From a virus, in UHGV virus genome UHGV-0269933: DNA of 13,616 bases, one strand, 5' to 3'. Positions 171 to 13,616 of the stretch are shown in pieces. A program made the translations under genes and the position numbers. Every line of letters starts with the position of its first letter. Positions within the stretch are counted from its first letter, which is position 1. Below the pieces are notes generated by a model. That model did no database searches and was not told the origin of the DNA. It was given only the letters and a program-made list of their open reading frames with translations.

Positions 171-944
171 ATGGTGTACATGAAGTCTATTCTTGATGAA
201 CTTAGTACTGATATTGAGCGCGCTGAAAGTCTACAGTCCCAGCTGATTAGCGTAGCTACTGGCGGACCTGCGTTACCATATGAATATCAGGAGCTAAGAC
301 GTTTTTTTGTTGAATCACCACTATATAGCAACATTATTCCCTCTTTCGTAAAAACAAACCGCAACACCGACCAATTTTGGCAATTTATTAAATACAAATT
401 TGGTACATATGCTGAAAGAAGGCAGTACATTTGGGATGAATTCCAAGAATTGATGGACTATCTGGAGGGTAAAAACAAAGCACCCGCAGATGAGGACATC
501 TCTGATGTATTAAGACGGTTTGATGAGGATGGTGTTCACACCGTGTGGATGAAAGCACTAGAACGGCGCCACACAGACCCGGATGGGGCGATAACCTCTG
601 CAAGAACACTTCTAGAAACGGTTTGCAAGCACATTCTTGATGATATGGATGTCCCCTATAATAATAAAAATATAGAAATGTCAGAGCTTTATAAAATACT
701 ATCAAAAGAACTTAACTTATCTGCCGACCAGCATACTGAAAGTATTTTCAAACAAATTCTTGGTGGTTGTTCAGCCGTTGTAAATGGGCTAGGTACTCTT
801 CGTAATAAACTTGGTGACGCACATGGAAAGAATCGCTCATCAGTTAAACCATCACCAAGGCATGCAGAACTCGCTGTAAATTTATCAGGCTCAATGGCTC
901 TTTTTCTAATTAGCTCATGGTTAAACCTTAAAGATAAAAATTAA
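171..944 (+). CDS. Abortive-infection family protein (Abi_C-like C-terminal domain); likely true start ATG at 180
   Basis: 257-aa ORF. C-terminal LGTLRNKLGDAHGK motif after a TLLETVCKHIL helix resembles the Abi_C family signature (from memory). AT-rich relative to flanks, own promoter and SD. Confidence 0.55.
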   Translation: MVYMKSILDELSTDIERAESLQSQLISVATGGPALPYEYQELRRFFVESPLYSNIIPSFVKTNRNTDQFWQFIKYKFGTYAERRQYIWDEFQELMDYLEGKNKAPADEDISDVLRRFDEDGVHTVWMKALERRHTDPDGAITSARTLLETVCKHILDDMDVPYNNKNIEMSELYKILSKELNLSADQHTESIFKQILGGCSAVVNGLGTLRNKLGDAHGKNRSSVKPSPRHAELAVNLSGSMALFLISSWLNLKDKN

Positions 945-969: not shown

Positions 970-1227
970 TTAGTTAATCATTATGTTCATCGGTTTAAGC
1001 TGTTTCTGGCTGTTCACCAGCCAATCTTGCATGTATTTGCACCAGGTACTGAACATCGCCTCATCAGTGCCTGGATAGGTGTACAGATACCCCATAAGGA
1101 CTTTATCGGTAATCTCATCCTCTTGATCCCAACCAATGATGAATTGACGAAATAGGCCGTATGATTTAGCCGGATCCGTATTCCTCCACGTTTCCACTAC
1201 TACATCGAATGCCGGAACCCTGAATGT
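970..1227 (-). pseudogene. 3' remnant of an unknown gene truncated by the IS66-family element
   Basis: Track ORF 970..1293; its N-terminal 22 aa are translation of the IS terminal repeat. Only the C-terminal ~85 aa (RVPAFDVVVETWRNTDPAKSYGLFRQF...) lie outside the IS. No start codon or SD. Confidence 0.35.
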
Positions 1228-2001
1228 GTAAGCGTGCAGTGAGAACCGTATTGACGAAGTGAAGCTGGTCAGGCAGGCAGAGTAACCCGCCACGGGAGCA
1301 GAGCACCCACCCGGTTCACAGGCCAGTCGGCGATGACATCAAGTACATAATGCAGATAGCGTTCCGGATCCACGCCGTTTAATTTGCACGTCCCGATAAG
1401 ACTGTACAGTGACGCACCGCGCTCACCACCATGATCCGAGCCGAAGAACAGCCAGTTTTTTCTCCCCAGACTGACCCGTCGTAGGGCGTTTTCGGCAATG
1501 TTATTATCCACCTCCACCCAGCCATCTTCTGCATAGCGGATCAGCGCCGGCCACTGGTTCAGCGCATACCCGAACGCCTTCGCCAGTTCTGAGTGCCTTG
1601 AGAGGGTTTTCTGTTTCTCCCGCAGCCACCCCTCCAGTGACGCCAGCAGCGGCAGCACTTTTTGGTGCCGGACTGCCTGCCGTTCCTCTGCTCTTTTACC
1701 TCTGATCTCCGACTCGATGGCATACAGCTCGCCGATCCGTTTCAGCGCCTCTTGCGAATGTCTGTCCTCTGGCTTTACTGGTGTTCATGTATTTTTCAAA
1801 GCCGGGGAGTGTAACTGACAGCGCTCGAAATACCTCTCGCGGTGTGCTAATCACTCGCTGGTGCTCCCGGCCAAATAATCTGATCAGAGGACCACTCAGT
1901 TTGATAGTTGTCATGACTTCTGCACATGGATTCATAGCCGCCTCAGTTAATTTTGGAGAAAGGAAACGGTTAGGCTTTTTTTAGCTCAAAATAGCGCTTA
2001 C
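1228..2001 (-). mobile_element. Internally deleted IS66-family insertion sequence remnant (~0.77 kb)
   Basis: GTAAGCG-type terminal sequences at both ends (1228 on +, 2001 on -). Contains the C-terminal ~170 aa of an IS66 TnpC-like transposase. No matching 8-bp target-site duplication (ctgaatgt vs catttcct). Confidence 0.7.
1269..1783 (-). pseudogene. IS66-family transposase (TnpC) C-terminal fragment
   Basis: Translation ...ALKRIGELYAIESEIRG...LAKAFGYALNQWPALIRYAEDGWVEVDNNIAENALRRVSLGRKNWLFFGSDHGGERGASLYSLIGTCKLNGVDPERYL...LLPW matches the conserved TnpC C-terminus. In-frame stop lies upstream at ~1786; N-terminal two-thirds absent. Confidence 0.8.
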
Positions 2002-2161
2002 CATTTCCTTTCTTTTTAGATGGTGTTTTCATTAAAAACATATAGTTACATCGAAGAAGAACAGAAACGGCAAATCGCAGAAAATTTTCATAAATAGCAA
2101 GAATCTGCGAGGTCGCCGCCCCGTAGCAGGCCGAATTGCCCGAAAGGACCCGCGCCGAAAT

Positions 2162-2307: not shown

Positions 2308-2694
2308 TCAGCCAATCAACGTGCTTTTCCCGCCGCGAGCCTGCTGGCGCACACGCTCGGCCTTAAGGCAAAGAGATGCTTCAGGCTTAGCAGGTACAGG
2401 AACATGGCAGGTTTCAGAGGTCCGGGGAATGTTATTGATCCATTCAATAACTTCACTCAGATACCACGCCTTGCGCCCCTCAGTGACCTGGACGCGTACT
2501 GGAAACTCACCTCGCGCTTCGAGATTCAGCAATGTACGGCGGCTCAGCGTGGTGAGTTCTATGACCTGATTCATATCAACCAGGCGCTCACTGACGTTCA
2601 TTTTGTCTGCCATCTCCAGCAGTTCACCCACCACTGGATCCGGATAGAGAGCATTGGCGGTGGCCATCAGGCTGTTATTTTTATCTTGCATCAT
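2308..2694 (-). CDS. AlpA/Vis-family HTH DNA-binding protein (second copy, with N- and C-terminal extensions)
   Basis: Core MNQVIELTTLSRRTLLNLEARGEFPVRVQVTEGRKAWYLSEVIEWIN fits the phage AlpA/excisionase-type HTH pattern. Start ATGATG at 2694/2691 with AAGGAG SD; the 144-aa track ORF start is an unsupported upstream extension. Confidence 0.55.
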   Translation of the reverse strand: MMQDKNNSLMATANALYPDPVVGELLEMADKMNVSERLVDMNQVIELTTLSRRTLLNLEARGEFPVRVQVTEGRKAWYLSEVIEWINNIPRTSETCHVPVPAKPEASLCLKAERVRQQARGGKSTLIG

Positions 2695-2701
2695 AATCTC
2701 C

Positions 2702-3043
2702 TTACACCAGTGCCAGTGGCTGAACAGAAATACCAGAGCCAACGAACGCTGCTACTTTTGCAGAAAGCGTGGTTACATCATCAGGCCAGTTAAGGGCATC
2801 AACATTCAGCACGCCAGCTTTGTAGACCTGAGCATGTGTCTGGCTTGCGGTATCAACAGCAAAGCAAGATACATAGACAGCCTGCCCGGCATGCGCCCCA
2901 TCCCAGACCACCAAAGCCCCATTGGTAGCATCCTGCATAAGTGGAGTCAGCGCGGGAATAACGCCCTTTGCTCCAGCGAAGATACCCAGAGTTGTCACCA
3001 GCGCTTCAGTACCGGCCGCCAGTTCAGTGTAATGCGTCGTCAT
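2702..3043 (-). CDS. Phage head decoration protein, lambda gpD-like
   Basis: 113 aa; ALTPLMQDATNGALVVWDG...VYKAG...AAFVGSGISV aligns with lambda gpD (AMTPLMLDTSSRKLVAWDG...FYKSG...TAFAGTAISIV). AAGGAG SD; translationally coupled to upstream capsid gene. Confidence 0.75.
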   Translation of the reverse strand: MTTHYTELAAGTEALVTTLGIFAGAKGVIPALTPLMQDATNGALVVWDGAHAGQAVYVSCFAVDTASQTHAQVYKAGVLNVDALNWPDDVTTLSAKVAAFVGSGISVQPLALV

Positions 3044-3052
3044 GATTACTCC

Positions 3053-4093
3053 TTAGGCCACGCGAACGGTGACAAAACGGTTGATACGGGCCGGGATAGG
3101 CTGCGGTGCGGAGTGGGTCTGAACGTACTCAATAGCTGGGTCGCCAGGAACAATGTAGTTCTTTGGCGCCAGCTCAGCTTTGGTAATACCCATACGGATG
3201 AGCTCTGGATCCTGAATTCCGCCGTAGGCCACAATGCCCTGCAGGGCGGTGTTTCCCAGCACCATCAAATCAGGATCGAGGAAGTGCTTTTCGGTGCCGT
3301 CTTCGTCGGTATAGCGACCGCTATAAACCACAATAGCCACATCGCCCATATAGCCTTTAAAGCTCACTGAATCGCCCAGGTCTTTAAGTGCTGTTTCAAG
3401 CTGTGCGTTGGAGCCGCGGCGCGTGTCGAGTACATCTTTAATCGCTTTGAAAGAACGATATTTTTTCCAGACGTTCCCGCCCATAATGATGATATTGGTT
3501 ACGCCTTCACTCAGCTCTGAATAGGTTTCAATATCGTCATTTGGATCAAACGTCGTTTTATCTTTACCTGACCAGGCAGCGCCACCAGCCTGAGTGATTA
3601 TATTCTGGGATTTGATATTCCAGTCCAGCTCATAACGCTCGATCCCTTCCCCCTCAATAATATTTTTCCCGGTAGTTACAGCCTGAACAGCCAGCCATTC
3701 AATACGCGCACGAATAGCAATAGACTGTTTGAGGATTGACTGTTTTACCTTGATATTGCGGGTATCAAGCGTGCTGTATTGATCAGGAGTAACACCAGCA
3801 GGACGAACAGCCAGTTTGTTAGGGTCAATGTTGCTCTTTGGTTTCATGTAGCCAGGACGGATAGACTTGGACTCATATCCCTCATCACGCGCCACCTTAC
3901 TACCCACCATAGGCGAACAGAACGCCGCGATTGGAATATTTGGGTCGTCGATAGTGTCCAGGATGATATCGCGCGTTTCAAAAGTAACTGCGCGGGTAAA
4001 GAATAAATCAGTGAACAGGGTTTTTAGTTGCTTCTGAATATCCTCAGCGCTAACAACCCGAACCAGCGCCGCAGGTGAATATAAATCTGGCAT
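3053..4093 (-). CDS. Major capsid protein, lambda gpE-like
   Basis: 346 aa, full-length collinear similarity to lambda gpE (341 aa): PGYMKPK..., ITQAGGAAWSGKDKTTFDPNDDIETY..., FRSFKAIKDVLDTRRGSNAQLETALKDLG...YMGDVAIVVYSG...MVLGNT...YGGIQD...GDPA... SD GAGG upstream of ATG. Confidence 0.9.
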   Translation of the reverse strand: MPDLYSPAALVRVVSAEDIQKQLKTLFTDLFFTRAVTFETRDIILDTIDDPNIPIAAFCSPMVGSKVARDEGYESKSIRPGYMKPKSNIDPNKLAVRPAGVTPDQYSTLDTRNIKVKQSILKQSIAIRARIEWLAVQAVTTGKNIIEGEGIERYELDWNIKSQNIITQAGGAAWSGKDKTTFDPNDDIETYSELSEGVTNIIIMGGNVWKKYRSFKAIKDVLDTRRGSNAQLETALKDLGDSVSFKGYMGDVAIVVYSGRYTDEDGTEKHFLDPDLMVLGNTALQGIVAYGGIQDPELIRMGITKAELAPKNYIVPGDPAIEYVQTHSAPQPIPARINRFVTVRVA

Positions 4094-4301
4094 ATATTAC
4101 CTCAGTAAAATAAATAGAGCGTTCATCACAAAAATAATGTTAACACTGACAAACACAGAATGATTGAATGCAATGATGTGCAATAGAGTGCAATAATGTA
4201 TAAAGTTAATTCACGGTGATATGGCCCGCTAAATATCTGTTAATGTCCTCACTGTTATTTCCTCCAAATAACATCGTTCGTTAAAAATCCATGTTTTCCC
4301 A

Positions 4302-4366: not shown

Positions 4367-4646
4367 GGTGAAAATCACCCTACCCACAGCTTTAAAATTA
4401 AAAAATATCCTTTTAAGTGTTCACCCGTTCACCTTTGCGAATTTCTTAATTAAATTCATGTAGTTATAGGGTGAATACTACTCTTTCAGGTATTCACTAG
4501 TGTTCACCCTACCCTTCACCCTTTAGGGCAAAAAACAATCAAAAGGTGAACAGGTGAATACTTGGTGAATACTTAATAAATAAGTGTCCACCCCTTAACA
4601 CTCTGTTATTAATAGAATTTTAAACAGGGTGAATACTGGTGAACAC
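4367..4646. repeat. Iteron cluster of P4 ori/crr type (TGTTCACC / GTATTCACC), ~12 copies in both orientations
   Basis: TGTTCACC at 4418, 4426, 4501; GGTGAACA/GGTGAATAC at 4470, 4545, 4553, 4564, 4628, 4638; variants at 4490, 4513, 4585; GGTGAAAATCACC palindrome at 4367. Matches the P4 type I iteron motif bound by alpha (recalled). Confidence 0.7.
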
Positions 4647-4659
4647 TTTATCTATAACT

Positions 4660-5361
4660 TTACTCTACCCCTTCATTCTCAGTAGTGATTGCACATGATG
4701 GCATCCAGTCGCCAGAATCATCATGCAGGGTTACGTTAGAGCGTATGCCATGTTTGGTTTTCCGCTTCTGGTATTCCTTCCCATACTCAACCATTGCGCC
4801 AGGCATATCTGTACCGAACCGCATCAGTGAGACAGGCTTACTCAGGCCATTGGCTCTCATGTATGCCAGATAGGCGTGATACAGGTACTTGCGCGGGCTG
4901 AATGGCACTATCTCGGCATTACCGATAAACATCCCGTCACACACTACCGACGCCATCAGGTAGCCGCAGAAGTCCACCAGCGAATCACCTTCACGCTTGA
5001 TCGCCAGAGCCTCCTCTGATTTCTGCTGCTCATACAATAACCGTCTGGCTTCGTCCTGGTCTGCAAAACGTGTAAGCAGATGGCGGATAACTACAGCCAG
5101 TTCCCCTTCTATTTTCTCTGCCAGCATCGAGTCTCGCTCGTTTTCTGGTACAACCTCCGAGAAATTGAAAATAACCCGGCGCCGCGAAATCCCCCCGCTA
5201 CGGTCGCTGAATGTCATAGCATTGTTGTTTACCGCCAGCACCACCGCCGGAATACGGGTTGAATATGGTGCTTTATGTTTAGGATCGATAGACACCTTGT
5301 CACCACCAGTTATGGCCTTAATACCTGCACCATCGCCAGCGTACCGGGTCATATCAGGCAT
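4660..5361 (-). CDS. P4 alpha-type primase/helicase C-terminal (iteron-binding) domain homolog, stand-alone/truncated
   Basis: 233 aa beginning near the SF3-helicase arginine-finger region (AVVLAVNNNAMTFSDRSGGISRRRVIFNF). No Walker A/B or primase domain. Located immediately upstream of the TGTTCACC iterons, as the alpha 3' end is in P4. Confidence 0.55.
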   Translation of the reverse strand: MPDMTRYAGDGAGIKAITGGDKVSIDPKHKAPYSTRIPAVVLAVNNNAMTFSDRSGGISRRRVIFNFSEVVPENERDSMLAEKIEGELAVVIRHLLTRFADQDEARRLLYEQQKSEEALAIKREGDSLVDFCGYLMASVVCDGMFIGNAEIVPFSPRKYLYHAYLAYMRANGLSKPVSLMRFGTDMPGAMVEYGKEYQKRKTKHGIRSNVTLHDDSGDWMPSCAITTENEGVE

Positions 5362-5427
5362 AATGATCGTAATGTTCCTTTATTTCATGAATCGTAATAG
5401 GCATAAATTCTCCTTGTTTGTCTAACC

Positions 5428-5620
5428 TGCCGCATTTAGTGCCGCGTTTAGCAATGCCGCACTTAGCGCCGCACCAGTTTTCTCAAAAAATTACGCAAAC
5501 CCAGTAATGACGTGGGTTTCAGTGAAATGCCGCACTTAGCGCGTGTATACAGGGACTAAGTGCGGCATTTGGTCATAAAACATACTAAATGCCGCACATG
5601 CCGCACTTACCGCCGCATTT
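5428..5620. repeat. Cluster of >=5 copies of ATGCCGCACTTAGCGC-like repeats including a 15-bp perfect inverted repeat
   Basis: Copies at ~5428, 5455, 5527, 5554 (inverted), 5588-5620. AAATGCCGCACTTAG-N16-CTAAGTGCGGCATTT at 5526..5571. Hairpin aaaccca/tgggttt at 5497..5519. Confidence 0.6.
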
Positions 5621-6983
5621 ACTCGACTGTTACCGGGTAAAGGTTCTCACCCTCGATGCGAATAATTTGCTCACTCTCCAGCTTGTCCAGCCAGCGCGGG
5701 AATGACTTTCTCACTTTGTCTGAGCCCAGCGTTGCACGCAGATCGTCTTTAATGACGGAGATAGTGCATGGCTCCCCCTTAGCTGTTCGGCTGCGAACTG
5801 CCTGCCATAGTGCATGATGGTTATCGCTAAGACGGGATACATGGGCCAGTTCAGGCTCAACCTCTTTAGCCTCTCTCGGCTGATCGTGCACAACCAGAGA
5901 GCAAACAAGCTCGCCATCTTCATCGGTGTAAAGCTCTGCCGTTCTCAGGTCATACGCTTTACGCTCTGGCTCCTCCGCGTCTTTCATCTTGGTACAGGTC
6001 AGAATAAGCGCTTTTCCATCCCCTTCACGCTTAACGTTAAATTCAGTATCAAGCGCAGCGCGGAAAGCACTGGAACCGCGAGCGCCTTTCCCTTCATCTT
6101 TGCCGGAGTGGTGAACTACCAGCACCGTTGCACCCGTTTTCTGTTTGATAACGTCACACCCTTCAATAAATGCCCCCATATCACGAGCATCGTTCTCGTC
6201 GTTACCGCCAAAACAACGGGCCAGCGTATCGATCACCACCATGCGAACCGGCACACCACATTCGGCTTCAATCTGCCTGGCAGCCAGAAGAACTTCTGTA
6301 ACCTCTGACTCACGCACCGGGAACACCGGACGATTGACCAGCCAGAGGTTGTCTGCCTGTATGCCATGCACCTGTTCCCATGCCCGTATACGCCGGGGAA
6401 CACCTACACCACCCTCGCCAACCACATACAGCACCGCGCCGGGAGTGACCTTCTTCCCCGCCCATGGCAGACCAGCAGCGATATGACAGGCCCACGACAC
6501 GGCAAGAAAACTCTTATACGAACCGCTGGGGCCGTAAATGCTGCACAGTGATTGCGCTGGCAGAAAGTGTTTAAGGATATAGTCCTGACGGATATCAAAG
6601 CCCTCAGAACCGCGAGAGAGAGGCAGCTTTGTCCTGAACTTTGCACCAGCATCAGGGAATACGCGGTGAATGCGCTGCACGTCAGACAGCATGGCATTCA
6701 TTTCCCCTTCGCCTATCTCTTCCACCAGCACAGAACGCCGCGCGGTAATCATATGTTTGCGGTCGGTATCGAGATACCCGGCATCACAAAGCTCCTCATA
6801 CGGCATTGCTGCTATCTGGTTGAGGCGAGCCACCAGCTTTCCGTAACGGGTAGTGGGGTCCTTATGCTGGTGGAGAGCTTTATCCAAATCGCTGCGACTG
6901 TACTGCTTGCCATGCGCCCACAGATACGAACAGGTGAACAAGGCATCCGATACGGTTTCTACAGCTGTCAGTTGTACCGTCAT
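5619..6983 (-). CDS. RepA-like replicative helicase / AAA_25 (RecA-fold) ATPase with N- and C-terminal accessory domains
   Basis: 454 aa; Walker A GPSGSYKS, Walker B-like VVIDTLARCF, HHSGKDEGKGARGSSA motif typical of RSF1010 RepA/DnaB-like helicases. ATGA overlap with upstream gene. Confidence 0.75.
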   Translation of the reverse strand: MTVQLTAVETVSDALFTCSYLWAHGKQYSRSDLDKALHQHKDPTTRYGKLVARLNQIAAMPYEELCDAGYLDTDRKHMITARRSVLVEEIGEGEMNAMLSDVQRIHRVFPDAGAKFRTKLPLSRGSEGFDIRQDYILKHFLPAQSLCSIYGPSGSYKSFLAVSWACHIAAGLPWAGKKVTPGAVLYVVGEGGVGVPRRIRAWEQVHGIQADNLWLVNRPVFPVRESEVTEVLLAARQIEAECGVPVRMVVIDTLARCFGGNDENDARDMGAFIEGCDVIKQKTGATVLVVHHSGKDEGKGARGSSAFRAALDTEFNVKREGDGKALILTCTKMKDAEEPERKAYDLRTAELYTDEDGELVCSLVVHDQPREAKEVEPELAHVSRLSDNHHALWQAVRSRTAKGEPCTISVIKDDLRATLGSDKVRKSFPRWLDKLESEQIIRIEGENLYPVTVE

Positions 6984-7348
6984 TTTGGAATGCCCCCGCT
7001 CATCTGGAATTTGCCGATCAGAGGATGGAACCAGTATGCAGAGCCATATTTGCGCTTAGCACTGCGCAGCACCAACCGTGCCGCTTCCCTGAACTTTTCA
7101 TCAGGTGCAACGAACCCGCCTGATTTCAGTTTAACCAGCATCACCCCTGTGTTTTTCGCCAGCTCCTCAGCCTTTTTGGTTGAGATACCGTATTCAGCAG
7201 CCAGTGTTGCTACTGGCGTCATACCCGGAGGGATTTCTCCGCCCTGACTATCGGTAAGTGATTTAACCTGAGCCTCAAGGCGCAAGACCTTCTCAACCAG
7301 CAGATCAACGCGGTTAGCCAGTTCGTTAAACTTCACATTGCTGATCAT
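6980..7348 (-). CDS. Hypothetical protein with N-terminal coiled coil and putative HTH
   Basis: 122 aa; TPVATLAAEYGISTKKAEELAK looks HTH-like. ATGA start/stop overlaps on both sides. Confidence 0.55.
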   Translation of the reverse strand: MISNVKFNELANRVDLLVEKVLRLEAQVKSLTDSQGGEIPPGMTPVATLAAEYGISTKKAEELAKNTGVMLVKLKSGGFVAPDEKFREAARLVLRSAKRKYGSAYWFHPLIGKFQMSGGIPK

Positions 7349-7572
7349 GGTCTTGCCTCCTGCGTTTCAGGGTCTGAAAAAGTAGAAATATCCAGTGAGT
7401 TTGCCAGTTCGTCAGAAAGGCGCTGAGCCAGGTGCGTTAAACTCATTACATGGATACGCTCCGCCTCCCCCTTGATAGTTGAAAGGTAAGCAGCACATGA
7501 CATGAGCGCAGCAACCTCTTGCGCCAGTAACAGCAAATCTTTTTTGCTGCGGTAGGTGTAAAAGTTATCCAT
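7345..7572 (-). CDS. Hypothetical small protein (75 aa)
   Basis: Start ATG at 7572 overlaps upstream stop (ATGGATAA). Track ORF 7345..7689 extends upstream without support. Confidence 0.5.
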   Translation of the reverse strand: MDNFYTYRSKKDLLLLAQEVAALMSCAAYLSTIKGEAERIHVMSLTHLAQRLSDELANSLDISTFSDPETQEARP

Positions 7573-7750
7573 TGAGCGCTCCCGTTTCATTCTGCTCCAC
7601 CATGCTTGCCGCAAGTTGATCCGATACTCGTCTGGCCAGACTGATAAGGTTTTCACGCTCAACCTGATCAACGTCGTACTCTTCGACAACCATCAACAAC
7701 GCAGCCAGTTCACAGGCTATTGACGCACTTTTATTGGTTAATTCACGCAT
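7565..7750 (-). CDS. Hypothetical small protein (61 aa)
   Basis: Start ATG at 7750 in ATGCGTGA overlap with upstream gene stop. Track ORF 7565..7912 is an upstream extension in another gene's sequence. Confidence 0.5.
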
Positions 7751-8012
7751 GGCGCACCTCCTGAATAGCTGCGCTATCGAACTCCCAGCCACGGCGGGTG
7801 GTGTAATCGAAAAACGCAACGCGACAAGGAGACTGGGCGCGGATTTTGGCAGCGAAAACCAAATCCCAGCCGGGGAATGCAGAGCGGGCTTTATCTTCCG
7901 TATCAGCATCAAAGCGGAGCACTACAGGTGTGCATTTTGGGGTGTGGTCTGGGGTTGCCAGGAATAACCATGTAAATTCCGGGCGAGTTTGGGTATGCTG
8001 TTGATCAGCCAT
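7743..8012 (-). CDS. Hypothetical protein (89 aa), first gene of replication operon
   Basis: Start ATG at 8012 with GGAG SD ([13 protein letters not shown]...). The 318-aa track ORF 7743..8699 upstream of this Met is low-complexity, Cys/Arg/Ser-rich non-coding translation. Confidence 0.55.
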
Positions 8013-8139
8013 AACTGTTACTCCGATTAACGGTTTGGTTAGACGCCCTGGTACTGCTCTAACAGTCCGGGGCGTTGCTTTTTGGTATGCACCTGCCATA
8101 CACTTGATTACCATTTCAAAGTAATCAGGTGTCAACCAA

Positions 8140-8319
8140 ATGTCAACCATAGAAATTAAAGCCAAAGGTAACAAGCAGATCGCATTACGCGTAGAACCAA
8201 ACCTAGAAGAAGGAATTAAACAGGCTCTGGCGCAAGATGGTGACGCTTCTGTATCAGCATGGATAAAGCGAATAATCCGCAAAGAGTTACAGCAGCGAGG
8301 CATTGAGCCGAAAAGCTGA
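8140..8319 (+). CDS. Small ribbon-helix-helix-like DNA-binding protein (59 aa), candidate island regulator/repressor; absent from ORF track
   Basis: ATG 8140 with AGGTG SD 9 nt upstream; stop TGA 8317..8319. KQIALRVEP strand plus two amphipathic helices fits Arc/MetJ/CopG topology. Divergent from the replication operon across a 127-bp region. Confidence 0.5.
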
Positions 8320-8499
8320 TACCCAAAATCTGGGTAACGGTCGAAACTACGGGAATTCTCCGGGGTATGCTGCATTGCAGTACACCCGGCACTCTGTTCC
8401 AGTTCTCCCCAGATTTGGGGAAATGGGGTATGCGCCAATGCCGTACACCCTAAACAGCCCAATTTCTGGGTAGTTTCACGTAACCGCGCCATTGACACA

Positions 8500-8519
8500 G
8501 TTCCTGTAATTACAGGAAC
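8500..8519. promoter_or_regulatory. 20-bp perfect palindrome GTTCCTGTAATTACAGGAAC adjacent to TTGACA; candidate operator
   Basis: Perfect dyad symmetry. TTGACA hexamer at 8492..8497 immediately upstream. Confidence 0.45.
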
Positions 8520-8588
8520 GCTCAGGCTTTGACCACCAGCATTAACCCTGGTATCCTGACTTTGCTTAATTTTTTGGTAGTGACATTG

Positions 8589-8616
8589 GCGGCCCGGCAT
8601 GGCCGCTTTTGTTTTA
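8589..8616 (+). terminator. Rho-independent terminator on + strand
   Basis: gcggcc-cggcat-ggccgc hairpin followed by ttttgtttta; ~270 nt downstream of the RHH gene stop. Confidence 0.55.
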
Positions 8617-8634
8617 TGTGACATTCCCCACCCC

Positions 8635-8844
8635 TCACGCTGCTTTGCTGCGGCTCTGCTGCCATGCTGTGACCTCAGAAAGAAGCCAACCAACGGCACG
8701 ACCTCCCAGCTTACGGCGGGCGGGAAAGCTCCCCTCTTTTTCCATCATGTATCGAGTGGTTCGACAAATACCGGTTAGCTGTCGGCACTCAGCCTCACGG
8801 ATAACTCTTTCTGCTGGCTGCTGGGATTGTTTAATATTGTTCAT
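8635..8844 (-). CDS. alpA: AlpA-family transcriptional regulator (prophage CP4-57-type)
   Basis: 69 aa from MNNIKQ; ...[43 protein letters not shown] is the AlpA HTH signature. The longer 81-aa reading would translate through a hairpin and has no SD. Confidence 0.75.
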
Positions 8845-8880
8845 AAAAAAATGCTCTCGTTCGCTAAGGTTCGAGAGCAT
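8845..8880 (-). terminator. Terminator-like hairpin with 9-bp perfect stem directly abutting the alpA start codon
   Basis: On the - strand, atgctctcg-aaccttagcgaa-cgagagcat followed by ttttttt then ATG of alpA. The 3' arm contains the only SD-like GAGAG. Confidence 0.45.
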
Positions 8881-8959
8881 TGTTATTCAACAAAATTATC
8901 ACCGCGACGGTGAGAAAAAAATTATATTCCTCTAAAGGAGTTACCCTTATTCAGTTATA

Positions 8960-9802
8960 TCAAGATAATTCTTTCCTGATTTTATCTAAAGAATCACTTC
9001 TTATGATTTTATCCAAGAAAGGTTTTACCGTTTGAGCTATGGCAAAGGACTCCTTTTCTCCATCCGGGAACAGGGATACTGCGAGTACGCCAAGAGATAT
9101 TTTGCTGTCGGTAGCGCTTTCCCATGACATCAAATCAATAAGTGGAATTATTCTGTAGTCAATTATTTTCCGTCTGACGCTCTCCCAGTCCCCTGAGACT
9201 GGCTTATCTGGTTCAGGTATTCCGAGTTCTTCGCGCCATTTTGGGAGGAGGTTCGTGAATGCTTCAATCAAAAGATCATCTCTGTTGTTTAAGTCAACAG
9301 TAATCATCACGTTTTCCACAACATCAGAAAGTAAGTTTACTGGCTCGCGCATGATAGCCCAAAACATACCGTTATCTGCTGTAAACAAATCCCCCACCAA
9401 ATCATCGTCAACTACTATTGGCTTTCCTTTCCAGTGACCTTTATCAGCATTGATTTTATTTAAAAATGCCAACTCAAATCTCATTAATGGTTTTATACCA
9501 TCGCCGTAACTTAATTTTAGCAAATCAGGCTGAGTCTTGTACTCGTATTCCTTTTGCTTTTCAAGAAACCATTCTTCTGCTTTGAGTTCCCCGAATGGAT
9601 CACCAAAATTATTGTTAAGCGGGTATTTAGCACCATATTGCAAACCATAGTCAGGGCAGTCTGTATTTTTTATTGCTAAATCATCGCATCGCCAATAGAG
9701 CTGACGAAACAAATCCTTATCAGACATATTTTCAAGGTCATCATATTTTTCCAAGCTGAATGACTTTGGTAAGTCTCTTTTACTGTTAATTTTTTTTGTC
9801 AT
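8960..9802 (-). CDS. Hypothetical protein (280 aa), AT-rich cargo gene translationally coupled to integrase; function unknown
   Basis: ATG overlaps the integrase stop codon (ATGA). Markedly lower GC than neighbours; acidic, Lys/Asp/Glu-rich; no motif recognised. Confidence 0.6.
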   Translation of the reverse strand: MTKKINSKRDLPKSFSLEKYDDLENMSDKDLFRQLYWRCDDLAIKNTDCPDYGLQYGAKYPLNNNFGDPFGELKAEEWFLEKQKEYEYKTQPDLLKLSYGDGIKPLMRFELAFLNKINADKGHWKGKPIVVDDDLVGDLFTADNGMFWAIMREPVNLLSDVVENVMITVDLNNRDDLLIEAFTNLLPKWREELGIPEPDKPVSGDWESVRRKIIDYRIIPLIDLMSWESATDSKISLGVLAVSLFPDGEKESFAIAQTVKPFLDKIIRSDSLDKIRKELS

Positions 9803-11022
9803 CTTGCGACCTCAAGAATAGTAACATTTGAGATATCAGAGGTAATAACCTCTAATCTCTGCATCCATTTATTCAGTGCATCCAGCTTTTCAGGTAAATA
9901 CTGACTGCGGTTATATACGGACATGACACCGCCCAGCGCATGGCCCAGAAGCTGCTCGACAACATGCGGAGCAATTCCCATGTTGTTCAGAGTCGTGGAA
10001 AACGTACGGCGTAGATCGTGAAGCGTCCACGGTTCAGAGTGGCCCAGACGCTTATACAACATCCTTCCCCACTGACTGACAGCTTCCGGTTTCTTTATCT
10101 CTCCAAGCAAAAGCCCTGTGCTTTGGTGCTGCTCTAAGAGCTGTTTGATAAATGGGCGGATATCTACGGGAATAGGACGTAGTATTTTCTCACCACCTTT
10201 GCTGTGCTCTTTAGGTACAGTCCAAACCCAATCACTTAGATCCCATTCGGTTACGCGAGACAATCTCAACTCCTGAGTTCGGCACCCAAACACTACTAGC
10301 AGACGTAGCAGCGAGGAGTAGTAGGGCTTGAATTTCAAGCCTGAACACTCCCGCCATATATCAGCCAGTTCTTGCCGGGTATGTTCCCTGTCCCGTTTAT
10401 TCTGTTTACGTCCAACATCATCAATGGTCAGATCGTCCAGGACATTACTCACCGCGTACCGATGAACACGGCAGAACTTGAGGGCTTGCTTACACATTTG
10501 CAGAAGATAGCCAGCAGCTACAGGAGCCTCATCTCTCACCCTGCTGAAACACTCCAGCCAGTGGCGGGTTTCGCACATAGAGAGGGGAAACGCCCCAATA
10601 TATGGGTAGATATGCTTATTGAGCTGTTCTATATGCTTTTCTACATTAGCCCGTTTATGAGATGCATATTCCCTTATCCAGTATTCAAGTGCCTCTTTTA
10701 CAGTTACCGGCTTAAGTGTTTCCTGTGTGGTGACAGTTAACTGGTGTTTCGGGTTCTTCCCCTCAGCAAGCCAGGCACGACATTGATCTCGCTTTGCCCT
10801 CGCGGCCTTAAGTGAAAGATCGGGATAGTTACCTAACTTCAAACGCTGAGGGGCAGTACTGCGTCCACCAATACGGTATGTAAAATACCAGGTCATTATG
10901 CCTATCTTTGACACCTTTACGCTCAGGCCATCACCATCAGCGTAAAAGCTATCACCGGGGCTTTCCCTCCCAACCATCTTGCGGAGCGATGTATCGCTTA
11001 ACTTGTTCGTTCCACCAGCCAT
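9799..11022 (-). CDS. int: Site-specific tyrosine recombinase, P4-type integrase (Arm-binding N-domain + catalytic domain)
   Basis: 407 aa. N-terminal ...DGDGLSVKVSKIGIMTWYFTYRIGG...LKLGNYPDLSLKAARAKRD arm-binding pattern. C-terminal HDLRRTFST...LGHALGGVMSVYNRSQY catalytic motifs, similar to P4 Int. GAGG SD. Confidence 0.9.
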   Translation of the reverse strand: MAGGTNKLSDTSLRKMVGRESPGDSFYADGDGLSVKVSKIGIMTWYFTYRIGGRSTAPQRLKLGNYPDLSLKAARAKRDQCRAWLAEGKNPKHQLTVTTQETLKPVTVKEALEYWIREYASHKRANVEKHIEQLNKHIYPYIGAFPLSMCETRHWLECFSRVRDEAPVAAGYLLQMCKQALKFCRVHRYAVSNVLDDLTIDDVGRKQNKRDREHTRQELADIWRECSGLKFKPYYSSLLRLLVVFGCRTQELRLSRVTEWDLSDWVWTVPKEHSKGGEKILRPIPVDIRPFIKQLLEQHQSTGLLLGEIKKPEAVSQWGRMLYKRLGHSEPWTLHDLRRTFSTTLNNMGIAPHVVEQLLGHALGGVMSVYNRSQYLPEKLDALNKWMQRLEVITSDISNVTILEVAR

Positions 11023-11044
11023 AAAAACCTCAGTTCATTTTTGG

Positions 11045-11068
11045 CACTGACTACACCACTGACTACAC
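11045..11068 (+). repeat. Tandem arm-type repeats CACTGACTACAC x2 (P arm)
   Basis: Perfect tandem 12-mer between the integrase start and the att core; homologous to the repeats at 69..90. Confidence 0.55.
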
Positions 11069-11195
11069 ATCTCAATGTTACTCTATGAACAGCAATGAAC
11101 AAAGGCAAACCAGAAAAACGATATTATCGTTATATATCATAATAATACACGAACAACAGCAAACATAACCGAACGGTAAAAAACGTAGGTTTTGA

Positions 11196-11213
11196 AAATA
11201 CGGCATGAACTAA
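11196..11213 (+). other. fis: Last six codons of fis (K-Y-G-M-N-stop) at the island/chromosome junction
   Basis: aaa tac ggc atg aac taa encodes the conserved Fis C-terminus. Stop lies 85 bp upstream of the yhdJ ATG. Sequence upstream is integrase leader, not fis. Confidence 0.5.
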
Positions 11214-11238
11214 TTCAGGTTAGCTAAATGCTTGATTA

Positions 11239-11276
11239 AAAAGGCGCTACTCGGCATGGGGAAGCGCCTTTTTTAT
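11239..11276 (+). terminator. attR-type direct repeat, the fis Rho-independent terminator
   Basis: Identical to 26..63. GC-rich hairpin followed by a T6 run, upstream of yhdJ. Confidence 0.8.
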
Positions 11277-11298
11277 AGGTGTCACAAAGGGAGTGACC

Positions 11299-12183
11299 AT
11301 GAGAACAGGATGTGAACCGACCCGGTTTGGTAATGAAGCTAAGACCATTATTCACGGTGATGCCCTTGCCGAACTTAAAAAGCTACCTACTGAAAGCGTC
11401 GATCTGATCTTTGCCGACCCACCGTATAACATCGGTAAAAATTTTGATGGTCTGATCGAAGCCTGGAAAGAAGATCTGTTTATCGACTGGCTGTTTGAAG
11501 TGATTGCAGAGTGCCACCGCGTTCTGAAAAAGCAGGGCAGCATGTACATTATGAACAGTACGGAAAACATGCCCTTTATCGATCTCCAGTGCCGCAAGCT
11601 TTTTACCATCAAAAGTCGCATCGTCTGGTCATATGACAGTTCTGGAGTACAGGCGAAAAAACACTACGGCTCCATGTACGAACCCATCCTGATGATGGTG
11701 AAAGACGCAAAGAACTACACATTCAACGGTGATGCTATTCTGGTAGAAGCCAAAACCGGATCGCAGCGCGCGTTGATCGATTATCGCAAAAATCCTCCAC
11801 AGCCATACAATCATCAAAAAGTACCGGGTAACGTCTGGAATTTTCCGCGCGTGCGTTATTTAATGGATGAATATGAGAACCACCCGACGCAAAAACCGGA
11901 AGCCTTACTGAAACGCATTATTCTCGCCTCTTCCAACCCAGGCGATATCGTTCTCGACCCGTTTGCCGGTAGCTTTACTACCGGTGCCGTAGCCATCGCC
12001 AGCGGACGAAAATTCATTGGTATTGAGATCAACAGCGAGTACATCAAAATGGGGCTTCGACGGCTGGATGTCGCGTCGCATTACTCCGCGGAAGAACTGG
12101 CGAAAGTGAAAAAAAGAAAGACGGGCAACCGGTCAAAACGATGCCGGGTTAGCGAAGTTGACCCCGATCTCATTGCAAAGTAA
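11299..12183 (+). CDS. yhdJ: DNA adenine (N6) methyltransferase YhdJ
   Basis: 294 aa from MRTGCEPTRFGNEAK...; DPPY motif (FADPPYNIG); C-terminal SAM-binding motif DPFAGSFTTG. SD AAAGGGAG. Track start at GTG 11293 is less likely. Confidence 0.9.
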   Translation: MRTGCEPTRFGNEAKTIIHGDALAELKKLPTESVDLIFADPPYNIGKNFDGLIEAWKEDLFIDWLFEVIAECHRVLKKQGSMYIMNSTENMPFIDLQCRKLFTIKSRIVWSYDSSGVQAKKHYGSMYEPILMMVKDAKNYTFNGDAILVEAKTGSQRALIDYRKNPPQPYNHQKVPGNVWNFPRVRYLMDEYENHPTQKPEALLKRIILASSNPGDIVLDPFAGSFTTGAVAIASGRKFIGIEINSEYIKMGLRRLDVASHYSAEELAKVKKRKTGNRSKRCRVSEVDPDLIAK

Positions 12184-12266
12184 AGGAAGTGTAAGCCTGG
12201 TTTTCAGATTATTCATTTCGTGTATATTTCCTGCCAGACTTGGTTAAACATGCACAGGCTCAGGTA

Positions 12267-12446
12267 ATGATTCGCAAGTATTGGTGGCTCGTCGTTTTCG
12301 CTGTCTTCGTTTTTCTGTTTGATACTTTACTGATGCAGTGGATTGAACTGCTGGCAACAGAAACAGACAAATGCCGTAATATGAACTCAGTTAATCCACT
12401 AAAACTGGTTAACTGTGACGAACTGAATTTTCAGGACAGAATGTGA
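12267..12446 (+). CDS. yhdU: Small membrane protein YhdU
   Basis: 59 aa from MIRKYWWLVVFAVFVFLF... with one hydrophobic helix; conserved position between yhdJ and envR. Confidence 0.75.
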   Translation: MIRKYWWLVVFAVFVFLFDTLLMQWIELLATETDKCRNMNSVNPLKLVNCDELNFQDRM

Positions 12447-12448
12447 AT

Positions 12449-13111
12449 TTACATGACACTTAATTCATTCGTTTGATGAATTAATTTCGTTATGTTTTCA
12501 TCTGGCATGAACATTCTTAATACGTTATCGACCAGCGCGGGTGCTTGTTTATAAAGATCATAACCCGCCATATTCATTAACCAGTTTTGAACAATTCCGC
12601 TGAAGGCACCATCAATAATAATCATCACAACATCTAAATCGAGGTTATTTGCTACACAACCTTGTTGCTGACACGCCTGCAATACTTCGCGGAGAGTCTG
12701 CGGATTAAAGCCCATCTTTTCGCGTATCACTCCCTCGGCCAGCATCTCATCATTAAATTCACATTTGTGATATAAGATTTTCAGCAACGCCTGCTGGCGG
12801 GGAATTTTGGCAATATATTGCAAGCCGACAATCAATTTTTCACGCAATTGTTGAAACGGGTCATGCTCTAATCCAGCCGTCAAGTGTTCCTGGATTAACT
12901 CCCGCAATGAAGGCTGTTGCAACCACATCTCATTAAACAGTTGAGTCTTGTTTTCGAAGTGCCAGTAGATAGCGCCACGCGTAACGTTAGCAGCGTCGGC
13001 AATGTCGTTGAGCGTCGTCTTGCTTACGCCATGCTGCGCAAACTGGGCGATGGCAGTTTCAATCAGTTCTTGCCGGGTCTTCAGAGCTTCGGCTTTGGTT
13101 CTTTTTGCCAT
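12449..13111 (-). CDS. envR: TetR-family repressor EnvR (AcrS) of acrEF
   Basis: 220 aa, N-terminal TetR HTH (TRQELIETAIAQFAQHGVSKTTLNDIADAANVTRGAIYWHF). Divergent from acrE. Confidence 0.9.
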   Translation of the reverse strand: MAKRTKAEALKTRQELIETAIAQFAQHGVSKTTLNDIADAANVTRGAIYWHFENKTQLFNEMWLQQPSLRELIQEHLTAGLEHDPFQQLREKLIVGLQYIAKIPRQQALLKILYHKCEFNDEMLAEGVIREKMGFNPQTLREVLQACQQQGCVANNLDLDVVMIIIDGAFSGIVQNWLMNMAGYDLYKQAPALVDNVLRMFMPDENITKLIHQTNELSVM

Positions 13112-13509
13112 GATTAATTATTCAGGAAATAAATATATTCGACACAGGGTGAGAAAATAGCGAAGGTTAATCTATCATCTAATGTGTATTTATACGAGAG
13201 GGTAACATTAAGTTGCTATAAATCGTCAAATAAATAATATATATTATTTACCTAAAATACATTCGCCACATGAATATATATTTCAATTTACGAGGTTTTA
13301 ATTCTACCTCTTTCAACCCGCGTCAAAATAAAACAGTAGAATATTAATCTTTTTTTGTGTTTATGTGCCTTGAGACGCCAGTATTCATAACTATTCCTTA
13401 CATCGACGAATGATAATTTGTAGGATAGCAAACTGTATTTTTCTTTCTGCGAGTTAACGCGTTGCCTTTCTGGGTAAATAACGCGCTTTTGGTTTTTTGA
13501 GGAATAGTA

Positions 13510-13616
13510 ATGACGAAACATGCCAGGTTTTTCCTCCTGCCCTCCTTTATTCTGATCTCCGCGGCTTTAATCGCCGGTTGTAACGATAAGGGAGAAGAGA
13601 AAGCTCACGTCGGTGA
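13510..13616 (+). CDS. acrE: Multidrug efflux periplasmic adaptor lipoprotein AcrE, 5' partial (runs off window)
   Basis: MTKHARFFLLPSFILISAALIAGCNDKGEEKAHVG: lipoprotein signal peptide with lipobox LIAGC. SD GAGGA. Confidence 0.85.
   Translation, partial: MTKHARFFLLPSFILISAALIAGCNDKGEEKAHVG

Follow-up and report, generated by a model that had tools for sequence, protein, structure and literature searches.

The virus genome UHGV-0269933, analysed here as a window of 13,616 nt (the whole stretch of DNA), carries an island of about 11.2 kb that is a Gram-negative phage-inducible chromosomal island (PICI) integrated at fis, and whose late part encodes relatives of gpE and gpD, the major capsid and head decoration proteins of phage lambda. 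The gene for the capsid protein (E; 3053–4093, minus strand) encodes 346 aa and belongs to a satellite clade of the gpE family, which has the HK97 fold. Profile searches matched it to Pfam Phage_cap_E (E-value 8e-45, model positions 8–329 of 329) and PHROG 29 'major head protein' (1.6e-88); it is 41% identical to lambda gpE across 99% of its length, and among solved structures it matched lambda gpE (PDB 7VI9, 1e-75) and 3BQW (8e-121). The gene for the decoration protein (D; 2702–3043, minus strand) encodes a 113-aa member of the gpD/SHP family, matched by Pfam HDPD (7e-14), PHROG 49 'head decoration' (1e-23), the structure of phage 21 SHP (1TD0, 2e-14) and those of lambda gpD (7VII/1C5E, about 1e-11). 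The window proteins share their Pfam families with lambda gpE and gpD and phage 21 SHP and align with them collinearly over the full length. Their identity to the lambda proteins is, however, limited to 41% (E) and 37% (D), their order is inverted, and they are detached from the W-B-C/Nu3 head module. Judged by these matches, both genes almost certainly encode genuine lambda-type capsid and decoration homologs. E directly precedes D, the reverse of the order in lambda, with a spacer of 9 nt that contains an AAGGAG ribosome-binding site. Thus, an earlier interpretation made without database searches (hereafter the sequence-only reading), which had proposed full-length gpE and gpD homologs tightly coupled in inverted order, was correct on both points. 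One homolog of the pair, protein P0005 (463 aa), is a single in-frame fusion of E and D; since the E stop codon plus the 9 nt of spacer amount to four codons, loss of that stop fuses the two proteins.

The same reading had found nothing else in the island that resembles a portal, prohead protease, scaffold or terminase, and the searches agree with it. Pfam and PHROG scans of all sizeable open reading frames (ORFs) of the island revealed no member of these four classes, and neither tblastn with lambda Nu1, A, W, B, C, Nu3, FI and FII nor tblastn with the complete HK97-type head module of a capsid-forming PICI (cf-PICI) produced a match in the window at an E-value of 0.01 or below. Complete tail genes are absent from the island as well. 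For all of these functions the island therefore depends on a lambdoid helper.

Is this gene content peculiar to one copy? Ten islands with a capsid protein of the same clade, representing 9 genera and including the window island, were compared: the E. coli PICI EcCICFT073 (L006), an E. coli helper-embedded PICI (HE-PICI) inserted into gene E of a lambdoid prophage (L001, 8461–20531), a Superficieibacter island (L007), a Kosakonia HE-PICI that also lies inside gene E (L008, 2659–14522), the PICI of Kluyvera georgiana ATCC 51603 on the mug/rpoD side (L009), an Edwardsiella HE-PICI that interrupts the portal gene of a helper prophage with intact D and E of its own (L011, 765–12681), a Salmonella island (L013), and the Serratia (L014) and Lelliottia (L017) islands at fis. 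All ten have E followed directly by D and the integrase with AlpA at the opposite end, and none has a portal or a large terminase inside the island. For replication, each has a module of the D5 primase, RepA or DUF927 type, and these three types are unrelated to one another. Extra head-related genes were found in only two cases. The Lelliottia island carries after D a full S49 protease resembling gpC (L017, 11409–12752), and EcCICFT073 carries at that position, after c1500, a 137-aa ORF (L006, 32084–32497) resembling the C-terminal, scaffold-like part of gpC-type proteases (PHROG 53, E-value 1e-8; pairwise E-value 0.001 against the Lelliottia protease), which shows no match to lambda C. The occurrence of a scaffold- or protease-like partner in some of the islands fits a role of E and D in head assembly. 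E and D without portal, protease or terminase are the conserved state and not a local accident; whether homologous islands keep the pair without a full head module, a comparison proposed in the sequence-only reading, is answered by ten islands out of ten. By gene bounds the ten islands span about 9.6–12.3 kb, mostly 10.5–11.5 kb, despite their different integrases, replication modules and cargo. When 5,426 complete E. coli genomes were searched with the E-D pair, megablast gave no match; a more sensitive search mode revealed relatives of the pair at 76.6% identity, the closest module being that of Kluyvera, and homologs at about 44% identity or less all lie within canonical W-portal-protease-D-E phage modules.

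The pair is accompanied by further conserved elements. The third gene of the operon begins 7 nt past D and encodes an AlpA-like helix-turn-helix (HTH) regulator (2308–2694, minus strand; Pfam Phage_AlpA 3.5e-8, PHROG 2790 1e-37); its likely start is the ATG at 2694, which has an AAGGAG ribosome-binding site 3 nt ahead. Orthologs with 73–91% identity occupy the equivalent position in the E. coli and Kosakonia HE-PICIs and in the Superficieibacter and Kluyvera islands (L001, L008, L007 and L009), and direct comparison with the EcCICFT073 ORF at the equivalent position after D indicates that the two are unrelated. On the other side of the operon, 60–100 nt upstream of E, lies an operator-like element (4168–4205, minus strand) that consists of TTTATACA followed by three (A/G)TTGCA(C/T) repeats with a 10-nt period. 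The element, which may have a regulatory role, is kept in six islands though its flanks have diverged. The corresponding pattern TTGCAYN4TTGCAY has 4 matches in the window versus 0.39 expected, and it was found upstream of the capsid gene in L001 (13465–13480), L007 (9905–9930), L008 (9900–9925) and L009 (9901–9926); in the islands of the EcCICFT073 type the exact pattern was not found. A consensus scan for promoters and terminators around the operon performed no better than on shuffled sequences. E, D and the HTH gene form one tightly packed operon, with the operator-like element ahead of it and a cos site directly after it, and the operon would be switched on through the conserved upstream element.

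The cos site (1951–2152, minus strand) is of the lambda type. It includes the exact lambda cohesive-end sequence GGGCGGCGACCT on the gene strand (cosN, 2110–2121), a cosQ-like part, and the elements R3 (2052–2069), R2 (2002–2013) and R1 (1955–1968), named according to the established knowledge of lambda cosB as summarised in PMC6739421. Over the 118 nt that follow cosN, identity to the lambda left end (bases 1–118) is 82.5%, and the alignment with the cos regions of lambda, the Kluyvera PICI, the HE-PICI and EcCICFT073 shows R3, R2, R1 and the cosQ-side sequence to be nearly identical to those of lambda. EcCICFT073 retains cosN, and its unrelated cosB requires RppA (PMC6739421). The E. coli HE-PICI of the 11capE type (L001; Tommasini, Mageeney and Williams 2023, PMC10111431) has an E-D-HTH-cos block with 75% nucleotide identity to that of the window, but it differs in lying inside a prophage late gene, in its cosN and in the TerS-like gene that follows its cos. 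Neither rpp nor terS is present in the window island or its Kluyvera relative. Because the cosN is exactly that of lambda, R3, R2 and R1 are lambda-like and rpp and terS are missing, the small terminase of the helper may recognise the island directly, and it is most probably the helper terminase itself that cuts and packages the island DNA. Relative to the Kluyvera island, the window has an insertion of 123 nt (2159–2281) in the interval from the HTH gene to cos; a repeat search identified within it two perfect 29-nt direct repeats (2162–2190 and 2240–2268, no strand) with no counterpart there. The cos site had escaped the sequence-only reading, as had a truncated gene behind it (1752–1935).

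To place the capsid protein among its relatives, a neighbour-joining tree was built from 117 full-length homologs obtained in a search of 5.8 billion proteins and from sequences of the fetched loci. The satellite clade was absent from the full tree, which was traced to one chimeric sequence, P0046; after its removal, 48 sequences at least 48% identical to the window capsid protein formed one clade in 50 of 50 neighbour-joining bootstraps, with an identity of at most 46.9% to the phage clade. P0046, encoded on a 4.4-kb contig of an ENA metagenome, is 100% identical to lambda E over its first approximately 240 residues and 100% identical to the HE-PICI E over the rest, and is either a natural recombinant of helper and satellite or an assembly artefact. 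Within the clade, the window capsid protein is 56% identical to c1499/3BQW, 86% to the HE-PICI protein (L001) and 98.8% to that of the Kluyvera PICI; the decoration protein is 52% identical to EcCICFT073 c1500. The ratio of nonsynonymous to synonymous divergence (dN/dS) between the window genes and their orthologs is 0.018–0.03 for E, the cleanest comparison being that with Kluyvera (dS 0.28, dN 0.005), and 0.06–0.13 for D. The divergences of E and D increase together across the islands, as expected for an interacting pair that is inherited jointly. By these measures E and D are an old satellite-specific lineage under strong purifying selection.

These results bear on the possibility that the genes are recently captured helper late genes that serve as a backup in those HE-PICIs which interrupt the E gene of their helper. 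The idea has been raised in PMC10111431; the HE-PICIs found in gene E of lambdoid prophages (L001, L008) do carry an E of their own, and the P0046 chimera joins a lambda E to a PICI E. However, no phage E exceeds 47% identity to the satellite E, which belongs to its own clade with an inverted gene order, and in Kosakonia the embedded E and the helper E interrupted by the island share only 49% identity. Moreover, the pair is also present where no helper E is interrupted, i.e. in PICIs at fis, on the mug side and at other chromosomal sites, and in the Edwardsiella HE-PICI, whose helper has lost neither D nor E. The clade, the selection and the Kosakonia comparison together argue against relics, against recent capture from a helper and against a general backup for an interrupted E, and we consider the backup explanation very unlikely.

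The island as a whole is a mosaic. From the integrase to the iterons (window 5361–13616) it is 94–95% identical to the fis island of E. coli HZ13 (L003), with which it shares the integrase, the att site, DUF6387, AlpA, the small ORFs, RepA and the iterons at this level of nucleotide identity. The HZ13 island continues into a complete HK97-type head module and is therefore a cf-PICI; its HK97-type capsid, prohead protease, portal, connector, HNH, TerS and TerL are all missing from the window. The similarity switches at about 5361–5368 according to the blastn breakpoints. Beyond this junction lie the remnant of a D5-type primase and its downstream region (4385–5368, minus strand; Pfam Pox_D5), where the ORF 4660–5361 preserves 232 codons (residues 371–602 of 605) and is 88% identical at the amino-acid level to the C-terminus of the HE-PICI primase. 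The dead primase remnant adjoins the intact RepA replicon with its iterons. Further on, the E-D-HTH-cos block is 92% identical in nucleotide sequence to the Kluyvera island. The identity switch at the junction therefore indicates that a front half resembling a cf-PICI was joined to the back half of a primase-type PICI with E and D, in agreement with the published view that genes near the integrase move between PICIs and cf-PICIs and that the capsid genes set the two apart (PMC10085698).

On the other side of cos, the window contains the N-terminal fragment of a tail assembly gene resembling lambda gpI (1752–1935, minus strand; Pfam Lambda_tail_I 3.6e-5, PHROG 32 'tail assembly protein' 6e-15), which breaks off after about 61 codons at a 530-nt fragment of an IS66-family element, comprising the 3' end of tnpC and the end of the element (1222–1751, minus strand; Pfam DDE_Tnp_IS66 and IS66_C). 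The IS66 scar noted in the sequence-only reading is thus real; it is 99–100% identical to IS66-family tnpC in hundreds of E. coli records. In the Kluyvera PICI, the same position after cos is occupied by a full-length homolog of 199 aa (L009, 12062–12661), to whose N-terminus the fragment of the gpI-like protein is 70% identical. That a satellite carries a homolog of a tail-tip assembly protein right after cos, full-length in Kluyvera, deserves mention; the paper describing the tail assembly inhibition system Tai (PMC11364771) states no link to the gpI-like gene. A 107-aa ORF (970–1293) was considered as the missing C-terminus of the gpI-like protein and rejected, as it bears no similarity to the L009 protein. 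Overall, the Kluyvera PICI resembles the window in its capsid protein (98.8%), decoration protein (93.8%) and HTH regulator (90.6%) and in its lambda-like cos followed by the gpI-like gene, but it has another integrase and site, an intact D5 primase instead of RepA, an untruncated gpI-like gene and no IS66. The identical scarred mosaic was found in contigs L019–L024, from at least six independent sequencing samples, with the primase remnant and, where the contig extends that far, the IS66 fragment and the abortive-infection (Abi) gene (e.g. in L020, whose 11,235 bases are about the size of the island).

Could the pair be what is left of a cf-PICI, whose portal, protease and terminase were deleted in the IS66 event, as offered by the sequence-only reading as its alternative? 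A same-site fis island with a full head module, 94–95% identical from integrase to RepA, does exist (L003), and the IS66 scar lies 1 kb from D. The head module of that cf-PICI, however, is of the HK97 type and has no similarity to E or D, and the primase remnant assigns the E-D half to a different, primase-type PICI. Unscarred relatives have the same E-D-HTH-cos content, and the IS66 fragment abuts the gpI-like gene, which it truncated, and not the head genes. We regard decay from a cf-PICI as extremely improbable, and the alternative was abandoned.

The source and the boundaries of the island are clear. The right flank, with yhdJ, yhdU and acrS, is 97–99% identical to thousands of complete genomes and identifies the window as E. 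coli chromosome, in which the island is situated between fis and yhdJ, at the 3' end of fis. A 55-nt direct repeat bounds it (9–63 versus 11222–11276, 91% identical). attL (1–63, no strand), which was recognised by the repeat, is the copy of the 3' end of fis and its terminator region on the side of the island, and it can be aligned with the end of fis in E. coli HZ13. attR (11199–11276, no strand) consists of the fis att identity block and the terminator repeat, recognised by the direct repeat and by the core TACGGCATGAACTAA (11199–11213), which exactly matches the consensus published for fis PICIs (PMC10111431). Next to it lies a tyrosine integrase of the fis-site type (9799–11022, minus strand; Pfam Arm-DNA-bind_3 and Phage_integrase), 54% identical to the EcCICFT073 integrase, whose stop is overlapped by a gene for a DUF6387 protein (8960–9802, minus strand; Pfam DUF6387 5.9e-30), an arrangement also seen in the Lelliottia fis PICI. 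There follow the AlpA regulator/excisionase (8635–8880, minus strand; Pfam Phage_AlpA 8.6e-16) and an early or regulatory zone of small conserved ORFs (6980–8319), including orf122, an Icd-like ORF (7881–8012, minus strand) and a YlcI/Arc-like ORF (8140–8319, plus strand), which were assigned by PHROG 6610, a tblastn match to Icd, a PHROG match to Arc and the annotations of a related island. The replication initiator is a RepA-family helicase of the AAA_25 type (5619–6983, minus strand; Pfam AAA_25 6e-43), its gene 95% identical in nucleotide sequence to that of the HZ13 island. Directly 3' of it, where PICI origins have been described (PMC6092414), a repeat search found four 20-nt iterons (ATGCCGCACTTAGCGCCGCA; 5427–5617, no strand), the putative origin of the RepA replicon. 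The end nearest to fis holds accessory defence cargo on the opposite strand, an AbiJ-like/Abi_C abortive-infection gene (171–944, plus strand; Pfam Abi_C 7.8e-22, PADLOC AbiJ 1e-20), whose product is 73% identical at the amino-acid level to that of the Abi gene which ends the HE-PICI in L001. The stretch between this gene and the IS66 fragment (970–1221, minus strand), the C-terminal part of the 107-aa ORF, gave no Pfam, PHROG or PADLOC match.

Such composition is that of a Gram-negative PICI: an integrase and att repeats at a specific site, alpA near the integrase, all core genes on the minus strand in unidirectional order, an own replicon with iterons, 11.2 kb between the att sites, and a packaging signal of the helper type in the place of complete structural, lysis or terminase modules. 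The island has no rpp or TerS-like gene according to the Pfam and PHROG scans of its ORFs and tblastn, and its cosB is lambda-like. Since Rpp is common but not universal among E. coli PICIs, its absence does not exclude membership in the class. No Rfam family was matched when the window was scanned over its full length, so that no immunity RNA of the C4/isrK type was detected. Three related classes were considered and rejected. The sequence-only reading had described the satellite as P4/PICI-like, of which the PICI part stands, on account of the integrase, att, AlpA and replicon, and the P4 part does not: none of the capsid-hijacking genes listed as P4 components, Sid, Psu and Delta (PMC10085698), was matched by any ORF in the Pfam and PHROG searches, and the cos site is of the lambda type. 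The island is not an HE-PICI, as it sits in the chromosome and not in a prophage late gene, and only its late module is HE-PICI-like. Nor is it a cf-PICI, as tblastn with the L003 module and the lambda head proteins found only E and D. The window island, a mosaic that has partly decayed, is an ordinary representative of the known Gram-negative PICIs, a class for which induction, excision, replication and transfer at high frequency by a helper phage have been demonstrated with EcCICFT073 and a Klebsiella fis PICI (PMC6092414, PMC10111431).

The feature itself has been described already, the capsid/decoration pair of E. coli PICIs being known since 2018, when c1499 (capsid) and c1500 (head decoration) of EcCICFT073 were reported (Fillol-Salom 2018, PMC6092414); the structure 3BQW is that of c1499 itself. 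Of 29 Gram-negative reference PICIs, 21 are reported to have capsid genes, and the mapped fis PICIs number 2,642 (PMC10111431); SatelliteFinder counts a capsid or capsid-modification gene among the core components of a PICI (PMC10085698). EcCICFT073 agrees with the window island in the protein families, the order of E and D, their position after the replication module and before cos, the lack of portal, protease and terminase, the integrase and AlpA at the other end and the size of about 11 kb. It differs in a small ORF that overlaps the start of E, the Nu3-like ORF after D, rppA, and two cos sites with a non-lambda cosB, whereas the window island has the AlpA-like HTH gene after D, a lambda-like cosB, no rpp, a RepA replicon and the fis site.

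What, then, does the pair do? We lean towards the view that it is a conserved late module of Gram-negative PICIs which acts as an accessory or conditional supply of head proteins, or as a modifier of heads, in cooperation with a lambdoid helper. The helper would induce the island and supply the portal, protease/scaffold, terminase and tails, and its terminase would use the island cos directly. E and D, which are quite probably assembly-competent head proteins, would act with the helper portal, protease and scaffold in head morphogenesis, and may enter the heads. Several observations weigh against this view. Deletion of c1499 or c1500 left the transfer of EcCICFT073 by its resident helper unchanged and did not restore the plaquing of lambda; the c1499::cat island was transferred at 1e5/ml with the resident helper and also via lambda and phi80; EcCICFT073 DNA packaged with lambda was phage-sized, and the authors report no phenotype for c1499 (PMC6092414). 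Among the late genes, only c1503 (rppA) interferes when overexpressed, and the others left lambda and phi80 uninhibited (PMC6739421). All experiments published on the pair have been negative. Mixed shells are doubtful, because the satellite E is only 40–49% identical to the E of the helpers found with it. Finally, the copy in the window may be defective, given its primase remnant, IS66 scar and truncated gpI-like gene.

The knock-outs also decide how the role should be worded: as they transfer normally, E and D are better regarded as accessory or conditional than as an obligatory private shell. The latter, a shell built by the satellite from its own E and D on the portal and scaffold of the helper, was put forward in the sequence-only reading as a distinct parasitism strategy. 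The conserved E+D-only content, the strong purifying selection, the separate clade with co-inherited E and D and the scaffold- or protease-like third gene of some relatives all agree with such a shell. Yet the c1499/c1500 knock-outs are mobilised normally by the natural helper, lambda and phi80, and packaging takes place in phage-sized heads (PMC6092414), and the gene content was no novelty after 2018, so that the proposal of a distinct new strategy is not upheld and an obligatory private shell seems distinctly improbable. Or perhaps the satellite E and D assemble with the portal, protease and scaffold of their natural helpers into satellite-made and possibly smaller heads, and the laboratory nulls reflect redundancy with the helper E and D? 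This is compatible with the purifying selection, the co-inherited E and D, the occasional Nu3- or gpC-like partners and the clustering of sizes around 11 kb, and we consider it possible, though rather unlikely.

A related explanation is redirection of capsid size, in which the E homolog, together with D, steers assembly towards small heads that fit one genome of about 11 kb. The decoration protein Psu of P4 is satellite-encoded and offers an analogy for the role of E and D. Precedents among capsid proteins are Ccm of SaPIbov5 and the suspected capsid homolog of PmCI172 (PMC6092414, PMC6893505), which are analogous to E and D in role only; a sequence relationship of Ccm, PmCI172 or Psu to the window pair is not expected. 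The narrow size range of the ten islands, maintained with three kinds of replication module, also agrees with small heads. On the other hand, size redirection was not observed for EcCICFT073, all of whose DNA packaged with lambda was phage-sized (PMC6092414), and by the packaging limits of lambda four units of 10.5–11.5 kb would fit into one lambda head, so that the clustering needs no small heads. Redirection of size is therefore unlikely in our opinion. Strong selection without a transfer phenotype (PMC6092414) could also point to a device for competition, in which the diverged E and D interfere as poison or decoy with head assembly in lambdoid phages other than helpers, or serve as decoys for host defences that sense capsids. 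PICIs carry many defence genes, the AbiJ-like gene described here among them, and PICI systems that target the structural assembly of phages, such as Tai, exist (PMC11364771). However, neither deletion nor overexpression of c1499/c1500 affected the plaquing of lambda or phi80 (PMC6092414, PMC6739421), and PADLOC gave no match for E or D, which leaves an anti-phage function with a low probability.

To the published description of the pair the window adds a complete lambda-type cos, a gpI-like gene truncated by IS66, a primase remnant that marks the mosaic, a front half shared with a cf-PICI and the operator-like repeat. The E-D pair travels as a unit with the AlpA-like regulator, the upstream operator-like repeat and cos, and this unit recombines with different front halves of integrase and replication genes, including that of a cf-PICI. 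The comparisons narrow the question of its function, as the pair is not a recent capture from a helper, not a backup for an interrupted helper gene and not the remnant of a capsid-forming island. If satellite-made heads do exist, they would represent a third morphogenetic strategy, between the satellites that remodel heads with scaffold-type proteins and the cf-PICIs. The interest of the finding lies in the role of a capsid and decoration pair that is kept in thousands of satellites as a clade of its own, with a dN/dS of about 0.02 that is typical of essential structural proteins.

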